Below are positions 34,009-52,585 of a DNA stretch of 52,585 nucleotides, in pieces. Under the pieces are notes generated by a model, which saw nothing but the letters and a program-made list of their open reading frames with translations, did no database searches and was not told where the DNA came from. The position numbers and the translations under genes were made by a program. Origin of the DNA: Candidatus Omnitrophota bacterium (GTDB lineage: Bacteria; Omnitrophota; Gorgyraeia; Gygaellales; Profunditerraquicolaceae); contig JAZDEW010000023.1 in the NCBI GenBank assembly GCA_043808425.1, forward strand, positions 1-52,585. Reading direction: 5' to 3'. Every line of letters starts with the position of its first letter. Position 1 is the stretch's first letter.

Positions 34009-34082
34009 CCCGCACCTTCTTTCCTAATCAATTCTATAAACCGTGTGACTTTAATATTCGAATATTTAGAAGATACGGGGTT
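34006..34082. repeat. Inverted repeat element ACCCCGCACCTTCT...AGAAGATACGGGGT
   Basis: 14-bp imperfect terminal IR; one arm also at 14991-15011, variant at 16455-16504. Confidence 0.65.
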
Positions 34083-34918
34083 CAAGCTCTCACCCTGATA
34101 GTTTTAGCCGGACAAACTTTTACGCATTCTTGACAAGAAGTACACTTATGATAATCAATTGCGGCCAGATTATCAACCCCTCGACTCTGCTCGGGGTTGA
34201 CCCTGAGCGTAGTCGAAGGGTCAGCTACATGTATAGCATTAAATTTACAAGCCTTTTCACACAATTTACAGGCAATACAACCTACCGGACAGACGCTCTT
34301 AACATCTTTACCTAAATCATCTGAACTACAGGCGACATAAACAGTATTCGTTACAGAAATAAGCGAAAATAATTTCTTCGGACAAGCCAAAACACATTTA
34401 TTGCACGCACGGCATTTGTTTCTATCCACTACCGGTAAGGCTTCCACAGACATGCTGATGGCGCCAAACGGGCAAACTTTTACGCAAGTGCCAAAACCCA
34501 AACAAGCAAAAACGCAACTCTTCTGCCCTCCTAAAACTAAATTCGCGGCAATACAATCATTAACTCCATCATATAAATATTTATCCTTAACTCTTAAACC
34601 GCCATTACAATGTAAAGTCGCAATCTTCTTAATCTGCTTCGTCAACGCTAAACCTAGAACCTCGGCAATCTTCTCTCTAGATTCATCGCTACAGACCCGA
34701 CAGCCTTCTACTACGCTCTTTCCACCGAACAAGCTCTCGGCGAAACTAAAACAGCCAGGATTACCGCATGCCCCGCAATTTGATCCGGGAAGCAAATGCT
34801 GCACCTGCTCTAATTTCGGATTAATCTGAACCGCTAATTTATTTGAAGCAACAGCTAAGCCTATGCCAAAGATTGCGCCTAAAACTCCTACAACTAAAAT
34901 CGCAACTAAGATTTCCAT
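34082..34918 (-). CDS. rnfB: Rnf complex subunit B
   Basis: N-terminal TM, LPGSNCGACGNPGC, several CxxCxxCxxxCP motifs. Confidence 0.94.
   Translation of the reverse strand: MEILVAILVVGVLGAIFGIGLAVASNKLAVQINPKLEQVQHLLPGSNCGACGNPGCFSFAESLFGGKSVVEGCRVCSDESREKIAEVLGLALTKQIKKIATLHCNGGLRVKDKYLYDGVNDCIAANLVLGGQKSCVFACLGFGTCVKVCPFGAISMSVEALPVVDRNKCRACNKCVLACPKKLFSLISVTNTVYVACSSDDLGKDVKSVCPVGCIACKLCEKACKFNAIHVADPSTTLRVNPEQSRGVDNLAAIDYHKCTSCQECVKVCPAKTIRVRA
34173..34222. repeat. TTCGAC...GCTCAGG family palindrome inserted in frame in rnfB
   Basis: TCAACCCCTCGACTCTGCTCGGGGTTGACCCTGAGCGTAGTCGAAGGGTCA, encoding DPSTTLRVNPEQSRGV. Confidence 0.8.
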
Positions 34919-34992
34919 AATTTACTTTAACAAAATTAACTTCTCCACAATTTTTCCTGCCAAATTATTTCCTATAAGAACAAACGCCTAAT

Positions 34993-35088
34993 TTATAAAA
35001 ATAAATTAGCGGGAAATCCGCTAAATTCCACAAAGCTTAAGCTTAAAATTGAGGCAACAATAAATACCAGAATAAAATTATTGAATGT
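34993..35088 (-). pseudogene. Decayed 3' remnant of rnfA
   Basis: Translates TFNNFILVFIVASILSLSFVEFSGF versus intact RnfA C-terminus TFKDLPLAFIIASMMCLAFMGFNGL; canonical position between rnfE and rnfB. Confidence 0.7.
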
Positions 35089-35682
35089 TCACGCTCTTTT
35101 ATCCTTGAGAAAATTAAATAATCCTAATAACAGGCCAATAACTAACAGAGCACCTGAGGGCATGCCAAAAACAAAAATCGGCTCAAACCCCTTAATCAAG
35201 ACATGCCCTAAGATCTGGCCGGAACCCAAAAATTCCCTGATCGCCGAAATTAGAATCAGCGCCAAGGTAAAACCTACACCCATACCTAAACCATCAAAAA
35301 ATGAACGCGCTAAATTATTCTTGCAAGCGAATGCTTCCGCGCGGCCCAAAACTATGCAATTAACCACAATTAAAGGAACATAAATACCTAAAGAACGGTC
35401 TAGCTGCGGGCTATAAGCCTTCATACACAACTCAATGATCGTAACAAAAGTAGCAATAATGACAATGTAGCAAGGTATACGAATTTTATCAGGGATTAAC
35501 TCTCTAACTAATGAAATAATTAAGCTAGATCCCAATAACACAAAGGTTGCCGCCACCCCCATGCCAATGGCATTAGAGACCGAGGTAGAAACTGCCAGTG
35601 TCGGACATAGCCCTAAAGCCAGAACAAATGTCGGATTTTCTTTAATGATACCCTTTGTAAATTCTTTTACTAGATTCTTCAT
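35089..35682 (-). CDS. rnfE: Rnf complex subunit E
   Basis: ENPTFVLALGLCPTLAV, IRIP, PLIVVNCIVLGRAEAFA. Confidence 0.95.
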   Translation of the reverse strand: MKNLVKEFTKGIIKENPTFVLALGLCPTLAVSTSVSNAIGMGVAATFVLLGSSLIISLVRELIPDKIRIPCYIVIIATFVTIIELCMKAYSPQLDRSLGIYVPLIVVNCIVLGRAEAFACKNNLARSFFDGLGMGVGFTLALILISAIREFLGSGQILGHVLIKGFEPIFVFGMPSGALLVIGLLLGLFNFLKDKRA

Positions 35683-35686
35683 TAAG

Positions 35687-35742
35687 CAGTTTTTCAGTTT
35701 TTTAATTTTTCGGTTTTTCAGTTTTTCGGTTTTTCAGTTTTC
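35687..35742. repeat. Octamer tandem repeat x7 spanning the rnfD stop
   Basis: CAGTTTTT CAGTTTTT TAATTTTT CGGTTTTT CAGTTTTT CGGTTTTT CAGTTTTC. Confidence 0.85.
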
Positions 35743-36682
35743 CAACAACCCCGTATATTCTATTCCTAGTATACCTGTCAATAAATGGTGTCGCCGCATT
35801 CATCATCAATATGGCATAAGATACGCCCTCCGGATAGCCTCCCCAAATCCGGATCACTGCCGTAAGCAAACCACAGCCCAGGCCAAAAATTAACTGCCCT
35901 TTAGCCGTTAAGGGAGTGGCCACATAATCCGTAGCCATAAAAAATGCTCCCAGAATCAGTCCGCCGCTGAGGATATGAAACAGCCAGTCTCCGCTAAAAA
36001 GCTGCGAGGCTCCAAAAACATAAGTTAAAACTGCCGTGGTACAAATATAAGTTACCGGAATATGCCAGGAAATATAACCTTTAATTAAAAGTAACGCTGC
36101 GCCGATTAATAACGCCAAGATACAAACTTCACCAATGCATCCGCCATGCTTACCCAAAAATAAATCCAAATAAGAAATATGCTCTAAAACCTTGCCTTCT
36201 TTAAGTATGGTCAAAGGAGTTGCGCTAGCGATGGCATCAAAACTAAACGGGGGGGTAAAGGTTGTCATATATTTTGGCCAGGAAGCCATCAAAAAAACTC
36301 TACCCACCAGCGCCGGGTTAAAAATATTTTGCCCTAAACCGCCAAAAACCTGCTTGCCCACCGCGATAGAAAACACTGCCCCCACCACCGGTAACCACAA
36401 CGGTACTCCGGGAGGAAGATTAAAAGCCAACAATATACCGGTAATTACCGCTGAGCCATCCAAAACCGTAATCTTTTTCTTCGTCCATATTCCAAAGACC
36501 AGCTCCGTTAATACTGCAGCCGTTACCGCGACTAAAGTTACCCATAAAGCGTCCAGTCCAAATATAATTACACCCGCAATCCCGGCAGGAACAAGGCTGA
36601 TAACCACCGTCCACATAATCCGGGCAATGGATTCTTGTTTATGAATATGTGGCGAACCTGAAACAATAAAATTATTTATCAT
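35702..36682 (-). CDS. rnfD: Rnf complex subunit D
   Basis: SPHIH, KQVFGGLGQNIFNPAL, FMN-site SATPL, GAFFMATD, GGYPEG. Confidence 0.95.
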   Translation of the reverse strand: MINNFIVSGSPHIHKQESIARIMWTVVISLVPAGIAGVIIFGLDALWVTLVAVTAAVLTELVFGIWTKKKITVLDGSAVITGILLAFNLPPGVPLWLPVVGAVFSIAVGKQVFGGLGQNIFNPALVGRVFLMASWPKYMTTFTPPFSFDAIASATPLTILKEGKVLEHISYLDLFLGKHGGCIGEVCILALLIGAALLLIKGYISWHIPVTYICTTAVLTYVFGASQLFSGDWLFHILSGGLILGAFFMATDYVATPLTAKGQLIFGLGCGLLTAVIRIWGGYPEGVSYAILMMNAATPFIDRYTRNRIYGVVGKLKNRKTEKPKN

Positions 36683-37307
36683 GCTTCAACTTTCTTTCGG
36701 TTCGCTCAACATGACCCTGAGCGAAGTCGACACTTCGACCCTGCTCAGTGTCAATGGTGAGCTTAGTCGAACCATCGAATGGGTCATTTTTTATCAATTC
36801 TTTTACCTCTTGCGCCTTTTTTATTACTGAATCCATTACCGCGCGGCTAGAAATTGTCGCACCGGCAATTGCCTGTACTCCGGATAGATCCAGGCTATTC
36901 TGTTGATTAAACTGCGCCGTAAATTTATCTTCCGTTATCCGCATGCCTAAACCCGGAGTCTCATTTAAAGAAAGAACTTTGATCGCGCTGATTTTTCCAT
37001 CCAGAAATATTCCGGCTAAAGTTTTAATTACGCTAGAATATCCTTTACCGCTGGCTTTAAAAACAAACCCGACCAGCTTATCCTGGCCATCAAATGCTTT
37101 ATAATATAATATCTCCTTAGCCGCAAGCGGCCCAACTGAAATAAATTTAACGGCCAGAGGCATAACTTCTTTGAGCGCTGCCTGTTCCTCAGCTAAAGCT
37201 CCGGCAAGAATTTTAGGGCTGGTGAGCATATTAACCGTGGCCAGCAACCCCGCGGCCACGACGCAAATAAGCCCCAAAATAAAACCGTACCGCATCATCT
37301 CTTTCAC
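36672..37307 (-). CDS. rnfG: Rnf complex subunit G with repeat-derived C-terminal extension
   Basis: N-terminal TM, ETPGLG, FMN-site AGATISS. Confidence 0.93.
   Translation of the reverse strand: MKEMMRYGFILGLICVVAAGLLATVNMLTSPKILAGALAEEQAALKEVMPLAVKFISVGPLAAKEILYYKAFDGQDKLVGFVFKASGKGYSSVIKTLAGIFLDGKISAIKVLSLNETPGLGMRITEDKFTAQFNQQNSLDLSGVQAIAGATISSRAVMDSVIKKAQEVKELIKNDPFDGSTKLTIDTEQGRSVDFAQGHVERTERKLKHDK
36695..36787. repeat. Nested TTCGAC...GCTCA family palindromes within the rnfG 3' end
   Basis: GACCCTGAGCGAAGTCGA / CTTCGACCCTGCTCAGTG / GGTGAGCTTAGTCGAACC units. Confidence 0.78.
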
Positions 37308-42045: not shown

Positions 42046-42654
42046 CTAAAATTTTAAACCGTTAAATCCCATAAATGCAAGACACATCATAGAAGCAATG
42101 ATAAATGCCAAAGGTAAATCCTTGAATGTCTTGGGTACATTACAAAGCTCAAGCCGCTCACGAATACCTGACATTAAAAGCATGGCCAAGGTATAGCCAA
42201 TTCCAACACATAGCCCATGAAATATCGAAAATATTAAACTTCCGGATACTGCCTTATTGTTTACAAAGAACATATCAATATTTAAAACCGCTACGCCTAA
42301 TACGGCGCAATTTGTAGTAATCAAAACAAGATAAATACCAAAGGCGCGATAAAGAGTGGGGCTCGTTTTTCTGATCACCATTTCCACTAACTGTACAAAA
42401 GCAGCAATGATTAAGATAAAAACTAAGGTGCGTAAATATGTTAAGTTAAAAGGAGCCAAAATAAATCTATAGACTAACCATGTGATAACAGATGATACTG
42501 TGGTTACAAACGTAACAGCCATGCTCATGGCAAACGCCTGCCTTGTGTTTTTAGATACAGCGACAAAAGGACACAGCCCCAAAAAACGCGACAAAATAAC
42601 ATTGTTAACAAAAACTGCCGAAATAAAAATCGCTAAAAACTGTCCAAAATTCAT
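42046..42654 (-). CDS. rnfA: Rnf complex subunit A, displaced from the rnf operon
   Basis: VNNVILSRFLGLCPF, LRTLVFILIIAAFVQLVE, LITTNCAVLG, GIRERL. Confidence 0.94.
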   Translation of the reverse strand: MNFGQFLAIFISAVFVNNVILSRFLGLCPFVAVSKNTRQAFAMSMAVTFVTTVSSVITWLVYRFILAPFNLTYLRTLVFILIIAAFVQLVEMVIRKTSPTLYRAFGIYLVLITTNCAVLGVAVLNIDMFFVNNKAVSGSLIFSIFHGLCVGIGYTLAMLLMSGIRERLELCNVPKTFKDLPLAFIIASMMCLAFMGFNGLKF

Positions 42655-42658
42655 TTTT

Positions 42659-42787
42659 TTACTCCTTCATGCTATTTAATCGTATTTTTTTATTTCTTAC
42701 TTTTCTATTATTCGCAGAATAAAATAGAACTGAGAACAAAATCGCTAACATAATAATTTCAAACGTCTGTAGTATTTCTGCTGACAC
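42659..42787 (-). CDS. 42-aa single-pass membrane protein; not in the ORF track
   Basis: GTG after AGGGGG; MSAEILQTFEIIMLAILFSVLFYSANNRKVRNKKIRLNSMKE; its 3' end carries the rnfA RBS (AAGGAG TAA). Confidence 0.62.
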   Translation of the reverse strand: MSAEILQTFEIIMLAILFSVLFYSANNRKVRNKKIRLNSMKE

Positions 42788-42826
42788 GATATCCCCCTAC
42801 AATTTTAGTTTTTTATTTATTTTAAT

Positions 42827-42903
42827 AAAAGCTATCATGCATGCACACGCAAGATGCGTCCGGCCACCTAAAACCTCCGGAAGCAAGAAGATTCCGGACA
42901 CTT
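42827..42903 (-). ncRNA. Candidate cation-riboswitch-like element, variant copy upstream of rnfA
   Basis: Same architecture as 52459-52545: 5' tail, hairpin, GGAGG linker, hairpin with 8-nt loop complementary to the tail, weak terminator with U4. Confidence 0.55.
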
Positions 42904-42917
42904 GTACAACAAATTAA

Positions 42918-44129
42918 CTAAAGATTAACAATATCTTCGGGATGATACAACGAAAGAAACAATAACATATAATTCCTTAAATGGCGCGTAATTAAAAAAT
43001 TGTTTTTTATATGCTCCCTCCCATTTTCTCCTAATTTCTTGGCGTACGCCGGACTGCTTAAAAGTTGTTTTATTGCAAAACTCGCTCCCTCAACAGAATG
43101 ACATAATAATCCTGAATATTTATGTTTTATCTGCAAAGGGATGTCGCCGACATTTGAAGCTACAACGGGTTTTGCCTTCCATAATGCCTCGGCAACTGTT
43201 AAGCCAAATCCCTCCCTGATAGACTTCTGGATAATTACATCTGAGGCCCTTTGCAGCGCATTAACCTCTATATCATTTTGAGGTAATAGTAAGATATGAA
43301 TATCCGGGTCTTTCTTAGCTTTTTCTTTAACCTCTTCAAGAACCCTGAATCCTTCCGGATCATCTTCTGCTGTCCCACCAGCCAACACCAGCTGGCAATC
43401 TGTATATTTTTTTACCTGCAAATATGCCTCAATTACGCCTATGGGATCTTTCAGGCGGTCAAAGCGGGATATCTGAGTAATGATTGGCTTATCTTTTTTG
43501 ATATCGTATTTTTTCAATACTAAATCAATTATTTCTTGTGGCAATTCCTTATTTTTATCACTTAACGGATCGATAGAAGGAGGAATTAAGAATTGCCTAA
43601 TGGGTAACTTCCTTGAAAAAGTCGGAGCGGAAAACACTGCTGAGTCGTATCGAATAATAAAATCCATAAGAAATCCCCAAACTTTTTCATCGGGATTAGA
43701 AACATCAATATGGCAACGCCAAAGCCACTTATTAACGGCTTTCTTTTTTATTAAGGCTATTGGTTGCGGGTCATGAATGAAAATAATGTCCCCGTAGGTA
43801 TCAACGCTTTCGATATTCTGCTGGCTAGTCTCCATGAATACTTCAAAATCTCTTTTAGTTATCTCCTCGGCTCTGCCATGCAAAGCGTTGTGAAACTTTT
43901 TTGTCACTGCAAAAAACTGCTCTCCACCCTTTATCACGTCCCATTTGGTATCTACCTCCAATTCCCTCAACAGCGGGACCATCCGGTTTAATATCTCCGC
44001 CACTCCCCCACCCACAGGAGTAGAATTTATATGCTGAATAACCTTGCCTTTTAACCGTTCACCAAGCAACCTTAAATCATCAATAATCGCTTGCCCCACT
44101 AAAGAAATATACTTTTCTATTTTTGCCAT
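42918..44129 (-). CDS. treT: Trehalose glycosyl-transferring synthase TreT-like (GT4)
   Basis: HINSTPVGGGVAEIL, TKKFHNALHG, HDPQP, WRCHID, SRFDRLKDP, QKSIREGFGLTVAEALWK. Confidence 0.88.
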   Translation of the reverse strand: MAKIEKYISLVGQAIIDDLRLLGERLKGKVIQHINSTPVGGGVAEILNRMVPLLRELEVDTKWDVIKGGEQFFAVTKKFHNALHGRAEEITKRDFEVFMETSQQNIESVDTYGDIIFIHDPQPIALIKKKAVNKWLWRCHIDVSNPDEKVWGFLMDFIIRYDSAVFSAPTFSRKLPIRQFLIPPSIDPLSDKNKELPQEIIDLVLKKYDIKKDKPIITQISRFDRLKDPIGVIEAYLQVKKYTDCQLVLAGGTAEDDPEGFRVLEEVKEKAKKDPDIHILLLPQNDIEVNALQRASDVIIQKSIREGFGLTVAEALWKAKPVVASNVGDIPLQIKHKYSGLLCHSVEGASFAIKQLLSSPAYAKKLGENGREHIKNNFLITRHLRNYMLLFLSLYHPEDIVNL

Positions 44130-48516: not shown

Positions 48517-50754
48517 TTATATTTTATTTAAAGCAACCAGCTCAGTAATAATATTTGCTGCCCAGCGGTAAATATTATTTTCGGCTATCACCTTGCGCAT
48601 ATTTTCCATACGTCTTTGTTTCTCTTCCTTGGGCATCTGGATTGCCAGTTTTATGCTATCCGCAAACTCTTCAATCGAGTACGGATTAACTAGAATAGCA
48701 TCGGTGAGCTCGCGCGATGCTCCTGTAAATTGACTTAAGATTAAAGCCCCGGATAAATCATCTCTCTCCGCCACATACTCTTTAGCCACCAAATTCATCC
48801 CGTCATGCAGTGAGCTAACGATACAAATATCACCAAGTTTATAGTAAGGCTGAATATCATCCTGAGAGAAATGCTTTTTAAGATAGATTATCGGTTTCCA
48901 ATTCCCATCTATGTGTTTCCAGTTAATTTTTTCAACCAATTCATCAATTTCGCCAATTAAGTCGTGATAACGCTTAATATGCGTACGGCTTGGGGCAGCC
49001 AATTGGATAAAAATAAATTTCTTCTTATACTCAGGATACTTCTCTAAAAATCTATCTATCGCTAAGATTCTCTCAACTATGCCTTTAGTATAGTCAATTC
49101 TATCCACGCCCACCGCGACAATTTTATTCTCAAGCTCAAACTCTTTTTTTAGCTTTTCTACATCCCTTATCGGTTCAACTTTAAATGAGCCATCGCCGAT
49201 ACGCGCATTAATACTTATGGGAAAAGCCCTTATAAAAGTCTCTTTTCCCGAACGCACAACACTAAATTTTTCCGTATCCACGCGTGACTCCAGCAGGCGA
49301 TTAGCGGTATCGAGAAAATTATTACAATGATTCTGAACATGAAAACCAATCAAATCCGATCCTAACATTCCTTCTAAAATTTCATTCTGAAAAGGACAAA
49401 TCATAAAGGCTTCTGGGGTAGGCCAGGGGATATGCCAGAATAAGGCTATTTTCGCATCCGGCCGCTTATCTTTTATCATTTTTGGCAAAAGCGTAAAATG
49501 ATAATCCTGTATAAATATGAACGGACTTTTAGCGGGCAACTCACTCAAAACGCTATCCGCAAACTTTTGATTTACTTCTTTATACATGCGCCAGTCAGAT
49601 TCTTTAAAAATCGGACGCGTATGTGTATTATGGCATAATGGCCACAACCCTTCGTTTGAAAAACCATAATAATAACCTTGCTCCTCATCCTTGTTAAGCC
49701 AAATTCTTTTAAGAATATACCGGTTATCATCGGGGGGGACACCAAGTTTATCTTTAGAGTTAACGAATTTCCTATCCGAATTACCGCTGCCATGAGCAAT
49801 CCAAGTCCCGCCACAAGCAGAAAGTATGGGGTGAATTGCAGTAACAACACCGCTTGCCGGCCTTATACATATCGCCTTACCAATGCCATCATCGAAAACA
49901 TGCATATAAGGCTCCCTATTAGAAACCACAAACAATGAATTATCGCCTAATTTTGCATGAATAAGGTCTCTCAGCTTAGCTTCAGTCCAAAGCTCTTCTT
50001 TTTGCAATCGGACATGCGCTTCATCTGATAGGGTGCGCCGAGCTACTCTGATGCTTAAAGCAACCTGCTCTACTTCGCTGGCAAGCTTACCAAGATCACC
50101 TTTTTCTTTTATAGGATGCGCTTTATCAATTTCTCCTCTCTGAAAATACTTAAACCAATCTGTTAGGCGCTGTATGGGTAGAGCAAAAATCTGCCTATGA
50201 AGAATAATGGAAATAAGAAAAATCACTACAACTAAAATTATTAACGTTGAACTAATATGTTTCCAAAGCTCAACTAACCTCGCAAAGACATAGGAAGTAT
50301 CGTGAATAACCTCAACCATTCCCAGAAACTGCCCCTCGTCATCAACTATGGGGAGAATATAGCTATAAACCTGATAATCTTTAAATTGCTCTAATTCTCC
50401 CCGCGGAGCCAGATTAGCTATAATATCTTTAATATAAGGCTTATCTTTTTCTTTCCAATCGAGGAACCTTTTAGTAAGCGCGATTATATTCCCGTCTTTA
50501 TCGTAAATAGCGCAGCCCTGCAATCTTTCCCGGGTCTCAAATTTTTCCGCAAGGTAATTTGCGGTCTTTAAATCATTGACTAAAAGCACATGCTTCACCG
50601 ATAATTCCATGCTTTCGGCAATGCTTCTGGCTTTTCGCTTTAAGTCATCAATAAGCTTCTCTTCTTCTAAGCGCACCTGAAAAAAACCAAAAAGCGTAAA
50701 GGCCACGGAAACAATAATTAGAATCGGTAGAATAAATAAAAATACTCTTCTCAT
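48517..50754 (-). CDS. otsA: Trehalose-6-phosphate synthase (GT20) fused to an N-terminal TM-sensor-TM-HAMP module
   Basis: VVSNREPY, YYYGFSNEGLWP, QDYH, GVDRIDYTKG, DGMNLVAKEY; two TM helices and HAMP-like PIQRL...DLGKLA. Confidence 0.92.
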   Translation of the reverse strand: MRRVFLFILPILIIVSVAFTLFGFFQVRLEEEKLIDDLKRKARSIAESMELSVKHVLLVNDLKTANYLAEKFETRERLQGCAIYDKDGNIIALTKRFLDWKEKDKPYIKDIIANLAPRGELEQFKDYQVYSYILPIVDDEGQFLGMVEVIHDTSYVFARLVELWKHISSTLIILVVVIFLISIILHRQIFALPIQRLTDWFKYFQRGEIDKAHPIKEKGDLGKLASEVEQVALSIRVARRTLSDEAHVRLQKEELWTEAKLRDLIHAKLGDNSLFVVSNREPYMHVFDDGIGKAICIRPASGVVTAIHPILSACGGTWIAHGSGNSDRKFVNSKDKLGVPPDDNRYILKRIWLNKDEEQGYYYGFSNEGLWPLCHNTHTRPIFKESDWRMYKEVNQKFADSVLSELPAKSPFIFIQDYHFTLLPKMIKDKRPDAKIALFWHIPWPTPEAFMICPFQNEILEGMLGSDLIGFHVQNHCNNFLDTANRLLESRVDTEKFSVVRSGKETFIRAFPISINARIGDGSFKVEPIRDVEKLKKEFELENKIVAVGVDRIDYTKGIVERILAIDRFLEKYPEYKKKFIFIQLAAPSRTHIKRYHDLIGEIDELVEKINWKHIDGNWKPIIYLKKHFSQDDIQPYYKLGDICIVSSLHDGMNLVAKEYVAERDDLSGALILSQFTGASRELTDAILVNPYSIEEFADSIKLAIQMPKEEKQRRMENMRKVIAENNIYRWAANIITELVALNKI

Positions 50755-52458: not shown

Positions 52459-52545
52459 AAAAAAGCCATCCTACACTCGCGTGCAAGATGGCGGCCCGAC
52501 CATCTAATGATCCTCCAGGAATACTTATTTATTCCCAGACCGCTT
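52459..52545 (-). ncRNA. Candidate Na+/Li+ riboswitch (nhaA-I / DUF1646-like) with overlapping terminator
   Basis: GCGGUC-[UGGGAAUA..UAUUCCUG]-GAGG..AGAUGG-UCGGGCCG-CCAUCU, overlapped by terminator GCCAUCUUGCAC-GCGA-GUGUAGGAUGGC-U6. Confidence 0.72.
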
Positions 52546-52556
52546 ATCCATCCACT

Positions 52557-52562
52557 ATTATA
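52557..52562 (-). promoter_or_regulatory. -10 box of the salt-stress cluster promoter
   Basis: TATAAT about 12 nt upstream of the riboswitch candidate; -35 would fall at the window edge. Confidence 0.5.
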
Positions 52563-52585
52563 TTGAAGTTATTATAACATACACA

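Follow-up and report, generated by a model that had tools for sequence, protein, structure and literature searches.

The nhaA-I motif (Rfam RF03057) corresponds to the Li+-I riboswitch (White et al., 2022; PMC9646797). Rare terminator-bearing variants of the motif in Deltaproteobacteria respond to Na+ and are known as Na+-II riboswitches, and ion specificity depends on one position at which a C stands where U is usual (PMC9646797). The same source mentions environmental sequences with several Li+-I riboswitches, some of them in tandem, and associations with otsA, mscS and citrate-transporter genes. The Na+-I riboswitch (DUF1646 motif, PMC9337991), going by its description in PMC9646797, resembles the element studied here in its two-hairpin architecture and sodium-related gene context and differs from it by another consensus in the lower part of P1 and in the P2 loop; an Rfam search of the window (the whole stretch of DNA that was analysed, 52,585 nt) gave no match to this motif. 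No solved Na+ or Li+ riboswitch structure was among the matches listed in a full-text literature search, and the word 'pseudoknot' does not occur in the available text of PMC9646797.

The window is contig JAZDEW010000023.1 of a Candidatus Omnitrophota bacterium, whose genome (92.8% complete) is referred to here as G000. A canonical nhaA-I riboswitch with its terminator (copy 1) is located on the minus strand at 52465..52546, with the Rfam match at 52486-52542. Copy 1 heads a row of genes encoding a PG0541-type P-II-like protein, a peptidoglycan-binding protein, an OmpA/MotB-like protein, a long OtsA, MscS, a CBS protein, a Na+/H+ exchanger, OtsB, a DUF5752 protein and TreT. The contig stops 43 nt upstream of copy 1 (52543-52585), and repeated riboswitch copies may break assemblies there. 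The OtsA protein (48517-50754, minus strand) is 745 amino acids long and has its glycosyltransferase-20 domain at residues 274-739; its first ~250 residues are weakly similar to the N-terminal membrane/sensor part of histidine kinases, WalK among them (E = 1.9e-10, far under the cut-off of that model). This osmotic-stress gene row ends with treT, encoding trehalose synthase (42918..44129 including the stop codon, minus strand), which was recognized by both Pfam TreT_GT1 and NCBIfam TreT.

Directly downstream of treT, the initial annotation had described a second variant of the RNA element (copy 2). The letters it quoted (AAGUGUCCGGAA...UUCCGGAGG...AGGUGGCCGGACGCAUCUUGC) were confirmed on the minus strand at 42827-42903, and its placement just after treT holds, except that copy 2, which starts at 42903, is separated from the treT stop (42918) by 14 nt and not by 15 nt. 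The next gene of known family is a paralog of rnfA (42046..42654, minus strand; TIGR01943, 247.6 bits), about 195 nt beyond copy 2. Between them lies a small ORF of 42 amino acids (42659..42787, minus strand), read from the sequence, with a GTG start after GGGGGA. Its product is predicted to be a small membrane peptide, the ribosome-binding site of rnfA falls within its 3' end, and an NCBIfam search with this ORF found no family above cut-off. A promoter scan around copy 2 gave three promoter-like sites where 5.0 were expected, none of them between copy 2 and the small ORF; the sole minus-strand call in the scanned region falls inside the small ORF. In public sequencing runs, no RNA run was listed as holding copy 2. 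DNA contigs from two runs of one study contain it with 0-1 differences, but as these contigs may derive from the source population they give no independent support for copy 2.

Copy 1 is a clear member of the family, scoring 48.7 bits in RF03057 (gathering cut-off 37 bits), and the consensus scan finds a 12-bp terminator. Copy 2 reaches 13.8 bits in the same Rfam model (E = 3 in a 501-nt search), which is under the gathering cut-off, and its P2 is left unaligned. The 69 sequences that reach the Rfam cut-off in 61 genomes of this bacterial order were taken as canonical copies and used to build a covariance model (R1). With R1 and the alignment of orthologs, a degenerate nhaA-I-type aptamer was delimited at 42849..42905 (minus strand), scoring 29.0 bits with a rough E of about 1e-6 in 176 kb. 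Canonical copies score 50.4-76.5 bits (copy 1 73.3 bits), values that are high partly by construction, as R1 was built from such copies. Applied to the 48 genomes of the genus, R1 gave 91 matches at E <= 0.05, of which 69 score at least 53 bits, five 37-49 bits, five 22-30 bits including copy 2, and the other 12 at most 20.6 bits. An R1 match within rnfD (35806-35860, 14.9 bits) was taken as chance. For copy 2, chance resemblance to nhaA-I was rejected on the grounds of synteny and the R1 score, and common descent with canonical nhaA-I elements is supported by the same site after treT, a common flank and the 29.0 bits in R1. Judged by these sequence comparisons, copy 2 is homologous to the nhaA-I family. 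It shares with nhaA-I/Li+-I riboswitches the P1 hairpin, the AGG linker and a second hairpin which overlaps the terminator by its 3' strand; it stands ahead of cation/osmotic-stress genes, and its orthologs at the same site are canonical members. It differs from them in its Rfam score (13.8 versus 37 bits), in changes at G2 and G46 and in two loop/stem bases that are changed or missing, leaving a P2 of 5 bp with an 8-nt loop. The arrangement in G000 recalls the tandem Li+-I riboswitches mentioned in the sections of PMC9646797 cited above in that several copies, each with its own terminator, are found along one cation-transport/osmotic-stress row. In contrast to these tandems, the G000 copies are 5-10 kb apart and between cistrons, and copy 2 is degenerate.

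Orthologs of TreT are present in 33 of the 48 genus genomes, including G000, and in 32 the region downstream of treT could be examined. A canonical riboswitch with terminator is found 15-20 nt after the treT stop in 10 of these 32 genomes (R1 57.6-68.6 bits). Other relics scored by R1 after treT are those of G008 (22.8 bits), G021 (19.7 bits) and G066 (7.4 bits, E about 4). R1 has no match after treT in 18 of the 32, three of which show fragments by eye: a terminator only (G065), scraps (G031) or a 5' stub (G004). A scan of metagenomes for TreT yielded 80 loci, some duplicating each other or genus genomes, and 72 of the 80 include the end of treT, one of them with only 27 nt beyond it. Canonical-scoring copies follow treT in 25 metagenome loci (R1 50.4-69.0 bits), and four loci carry relics (29.8, 27.7, 21.0 and 13.9 bits) whose lesions are unlike copy 2 and unlike one another. 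The lesions of the other relics after treT likewise differ, with P1 deleted, one half of P2 deleted, or the terminator alone left. The flanks of copy 2 are collinear with those of canonical copies at the same site in relatives, and the loci nearest to G000 (TreT 93-94% identical: G010, L135-L138 and L189) are all canonical and have the flank TTGTACAAG in common with copy 2. The copy 2 variant itself was found in no second genome among the 48 genus genomes and the 80 metagenome loci. A variant class shared with G008 and L140, which both also read AGGUGGC at P2, was considered and rejected, as their loops are of the CGGGUU type and the other lesions differ. In addition, the TreT of G000 is nearer to that of the canonical-bearing G010 (94%) than to that of G008 (90%).

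In six loci treT is followed by the same rnfA paralog, and the leader of the paralog is canonical in four of them (G026, L146, L153 and L190), lacks a riboswitch in G034 and is degenerate only in G000. Small ORFs homologous to that of G000 precede the paralog in G026, L146 and L153. Between riboswitch and paralog, the relatives G026 (L088 2866-3359), L146, L153 and L190 have three to four conserved hydrophobic tiny ORFs (32-45 amino acids), and G000 keeps just the last of them (42659-42787) ahead of its rnfA paralog. The initial annotation had named absence or random decay of the element in orthologous rnfA leaders, with no ligand response, as an outcome that would refute its proposal. The observations go largely in that direction: after treT, other lineages show loss or varied decay that looks random, while four of the six rnfA leaders have the canonical form.

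The degeneration of copy 2 concerns positions that hardly vary in the family. Across the 69 canonical copies (61 genomes), no variation is seen at positions 2, 4, 37, 39-41 and 44-53 (69/69), and U42 is present in 68. Copy 2 carries the changes G2U, U42C and G46A and lacks two bases within positions 47-51; its A38G is also present in four of the 69 canonical copies. In the tail AAGUGU, model position 2 (42900, minus strand) is changed from G to U, and the conserved 5' GGU before P1 is replaced by GUGU (G at position 2 in 69/69 canonical copies, U in none). P1 is kept as a 7-bp hairpin, in which UCCGGAA (42898-42892) pairs with UUCCGGA (42882-42876), and is followed, as in nhaA-I, by an intact AGG linker (42876-42874), both on the minus strand. 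In place of a 7-bp P2 closing a CGGGCC loop, copy 2 has a region that is two bases shorter, with a residual P2 of 5 bp (42869-42865 paired with 42856-42852, minus strand) closing an 8-nt loop (42864-42857). Compared with its seven closest canonical orthologs, copy 2 shows 9-13 differences in 56 aptamer columns, against 0-6 in 56 among those seven. Divergence at four-fold sites of treT is 0.28-0.42 between G000 and the seven orthologs and 0-0.39 among the seven. The comparison of aptamer and four-fold-site divergence suggests that the copy 2 aptamer has changed at near the neutral rate, with changes striking otherwise frozen positions. As the aptamer divergence (0.16-0.23) is somewhat lower than that at the four-fold sites (0.28-0.42), constraint may persist in part.

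Some features of copy 2 resemble those of the Na+-II construct in the supplement of PMC9646797, namely an expression platform that appears to be of the terminator type, a P1 with pyrimidines at its base and a C just 5' of the P2 loop. Equating position 54 of that paper with model position 42 was deduced from the construct sequence given there. The construct retains the GGU tail and the CGGGCC loop, whereas copy 2 does not, and the canonical copies in this genus have U42 in 68/69, as in most Li+-I RNAs according to the same source. As to the Na+-II trait that the 5' strand of the terminator is the 3' strand of P2, copy 2 has a hairpin that is weak (-8.6 kcal/mol, with a bulge and a mismatch) and is not called in the scan. 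On the sequence level, the likeness of copy 2 to Na+-II is a lead and not membership.

Folding of the 69 canonical aptamers alone gave P2 in the minimum-energy fold of 61 and an alternative helix in four, and the terminator was formed in 64 of the 69 when they were folded together with the expression platform. For copy 2, with or without downstream sequence, the minimum-energy fold is an 8-bp long-range helix GUGUCCGG:CCGGACGC (within 42856..42901, minus strand; 42901-42894 paired with 42863-42856). With this helix in place, neither P1 nor P2 can form, and the residual terminator stem loses its two basal bases to it. The competing states were calculated at -25.0 kcal/mol (alternative helix), -22.2 kcal/mol (P1 and terminator) and -17.9 kcal/mol (P1 and P2), and in this model the aptamer is not the predicted fold of copy 2. 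The residual terminator (42824..42857, minus strand) consists of a hairpin (42857-42831), which contains a bulge and a U-U mismatch, and the tail UUUUAUU (42830-42824). Its hairpin of -8.6 kcal/mol compares with -15.6 to -25.6 kcal/mol in nine orthologs downstream of treT, and the consensus terminator scan did not call it, which agrees with the imperfect terminator described in the initial annotation. Over all 69 canonical copies the terminator energy has a median of -15.8 kcal/mol and a range of -22.8 to -1.9 kcal/mol. Given this wide range, the copy 2 terminator is weak and not unprecedented, and since its energy lies within the canonical range and its tail has 6 U in 9, some termination may persist.

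A pairing between tail and loop, retained through changes on both sides, had been taken as a sign of selection on structure. The complementarities themselves can be read from the sequence in both copies (GCGGUC:GGCCGC in copy 1 and GUGUCC:GGACGC in copy 2). The label of covariation is unjustified, because the two copies are of different subtypes (AAG(U/C)GGUCUGG versus ACAAGGGUCCGG) and non-orthologous, the register of the helix is shifted by a deletion in copy 2, and the 3' partner positions 44-48 are invariant in 69/69 canonical copies. In the canonical family, positions 2-8 can pair with positions 42-48, and all seven pairs are possible in 52 of the 69 copies. On the 5' side, variation is limited to one-sided exchanges between C and U (positions 5 and 6), which are also demanded by P1, and 14 of the 69 have an A-C mismatch at pair 7:43. 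No two-sided change in the tail-loop helix was found across the 69 canonical copies. In copy 2, this latent helix is made longer and stronger by U42C, by G46A and by G2U combined with a deletion. Random decay was simulated from two canonical orthologs with 7 or 11 substitutions and two deletions (3000 replicates each). At least eight long-range pairs arose in 20-21% of the replicates, and at least eight such pairs together with an energy of -19 kcal/mol or lower in 2.7-4.0%. A helix of at least eight pairs is frequent in random decay because the canonical sequence already contains the complementarity in latent form. The figure of 2.7-4.0% is mildly unusual, but the test was picked after the helix was seen and is weak evidence at most.

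The usual order of the rnf genes is C-D-G-E-A-B. In the rnf operon of G000 (35702-37307, minus strand, for the part with the deviating order), the order appears instead to be rnfC, rnfG-like (product of 211 amino acids), rnfD, rnfE and rnfB. At its start, rnfC shares 13 nt with an MFS transporter gene. In the 170-nt gap (34919-35088) between rnfE (35089-35682) and rnfB (34082-34918), the last 23 codons of a canonical rnfA remain (35014..35082, minus strand). In a tblastn search with the canonical RnfA of G010, this remnant matches residues 178-200 with 69.6% identity (E = 5e-6 in a 450-nt subject). A search of the G000 genome itself found one rnfE and, apart from the paralog at 42046-42654, no intact rnfA. 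In G034, the canonical rnfA is also gone from between rnfE and rnfB, and no riboswitch precedes the paralog. G026 and G072 have kept both the canonical rnfA and the canonical riboswitch. The correlation between loss of rnfA and the state of the riboswitch in these four related genomes is suggestive only, and loss of the canonical rnfA may explain relaxed or reversed selection on copy 2.

In our view copy 2 is probably (probability about 0.7) a decaying, ligand-blind relic of an nhaA-I-type riboswitch. In this reading it is the eroded ortholog of a transcription-attenuating riboswitch of nhaA-I type (Li+-I/Na+-II-like), which in related Omnitrophota is present in canonical form directly after treT and is proposed to gate the next transcription unit. 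In G000 the putative cation-binding core is broken, with the 5' GGU and the loop and stem of P2 mutated and shortened; the RNA is predicted to take the long-range helix in place of the P1 and P2 aptamer, and the terminator appears weakened. With a broken core, an alternative fold and a weak terminator, copy 2 most likely senses no ion. The sequence comparisons show the homology, the lesions and the lack of conservation of the variant, and from these we infer that ligand response has been lost and that read-through occurs. Transcription from treT would then run into the small ORF and rnfA largely unregulated. A plausible cause is deletion of the canonical rnfA from the rnf operon: with the paralog left as the only rnfA, conditional termination ahead of it would be useless or harmful, and would be either unmaintained or selected against. 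The initial annotation had offered a decaying copy as its second option, and it is this option that the lesions, the synteny with canonical orthologs and the idiosyncratic decay elsewhere favour. Its other option was an intercistronic second checkpoint, possibly with altered ion specificity. The notion of such a checkpoint fits the canonical orthologs of relatives, which lie directly after treT with a full terminator. For copy 2 that option and the proposed selection on structure are not supported, given the changed core invariants, the predicted non-aptamer fold and the uniqueness of the variant among the genomes and contigs searched.

Re-purposing of the leader in G000, either into an attenuator made permanently open by the strengthened tail-to-loop helix or, less likely, into a sensor of new specificity relying on C42, is unlikely overall; if true, it would be a natural case of a riboswitch rewired by few substitutions. 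For the permanently open form, also unlikely, mutations following the loss of canonical rnfA would have been selected to lock the former riboswitch in read-through, with GUGUCCGG:CCGGACGC as a constitutive anti-terminator. It would act in that way because its formation uses up the two G-C pairs at the base of the terminator, beside the U tract, and leaves a truncated hairpin apart from that tract; it is also the minimum-energy fold. All three core changes (U42C, G46A and G2U with the deletion) improve the helix, its combination with such stability arose in just 2.7-4.0% of simulated decays, and G000 has a sole rnfA. On the other hand, a helix of at least eight pairs appears in 20-21% of random decays and 52 of 69 canonical copies can already form all seven pairs, while the simulation test was post hoc and co-transcriptional folding would form P1 first. 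Furthermore, G034, in the same situation, simply lost the element, and no second lineage has such a solution.

Still more doubtful is a second checkpoint ahead of rnfA in the form of a working riboswitch variant of changed specificity (Na+-II-like or for another cation). Copy 2 retains P1 and AGG, and its C42 and UUUU linker resemble the D. propionicus Na+-II construct in the supplement of PMC9646797. That paper reports altered ion specificity after exchange of one base at the site equated here with position 42, and G at position 38 is found in four of 69 canonical copies. Against this reading, copy 2 has an altered and shorter loop, whereas the Na+-II construct has CGGGCC unchanged and the 69 canonical copies show no variation at positions 44-48; G2 is changed to a U that none of the 69 canonical copies has, the aptamer state lies 7 kcal/mol above the minimum, and the variant is unique to G000 among the 48 genus genomes and 80 metagenome loci. 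PMC9646797 also reports that altering strictly conserved G nucleotides greatly weakens the response (in that paper's own numbering, including G56 and G57). A plain leaky intrinsic terminator or attenuator that closes the treT gene row, and in which the aptamer portion plays no role, appears marginally less probable again. It is consistent with the terminator alone retained at this site in G065, and the copy 2 hairpin (-8.6 kcal/mol) with UUUUAUU falls within the weak end of canonical terminators. However, the one intact rnfA of G000 follows downstream in the same orientation, the scan called no promoter-like site from the element to the small ORF, and the base of the stem is contested by the alternative helix. 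The decaying relic is retained as the preferred reading.

As a broken copy of a described riboswitch class, copy 2 itself matters little; its value is that of a dated case of a decaying riboswitch for which intact orthologs allow comparison. The lineage is of wider interest, as terminator-bearing nhaA-I-type switches are very abundant in these Omnitrophota and lie between cistrons of osmotic-stress rows. One such row includes a second rnfA, an association that is unnamed in the nhaA-I table of PMC9646797. In terminator-type copies, the latent helix that joins the tail/P1 to the P2 loop could be part of the OFF state.

In the genus (G000 and 47 further genomes), nhaA-I-type riboswitches with intrinsic terminators are very common, with up to seven per genome; a further copy in G000 is located at G000:C52:11331-11380. 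Often two to three copies are found per contig, 5-10 kb apart and between cistrons (OtsA/OtsB/TreT, MscS and Na+/H+ exchangers). The copies of this genus share with the Na+-II construct of the PMC9646797 supplement a P1 base made of pyrimidines, and with Li+-I the U at position 42. Only one of the 69 canonical copies, at G043:C1:492927-492985 (L028), has C42 with an intact loop; it scores 47.4 bits in Rfam and is, by its sequence, a natural candidate for a Na+-II-type signature in this order.
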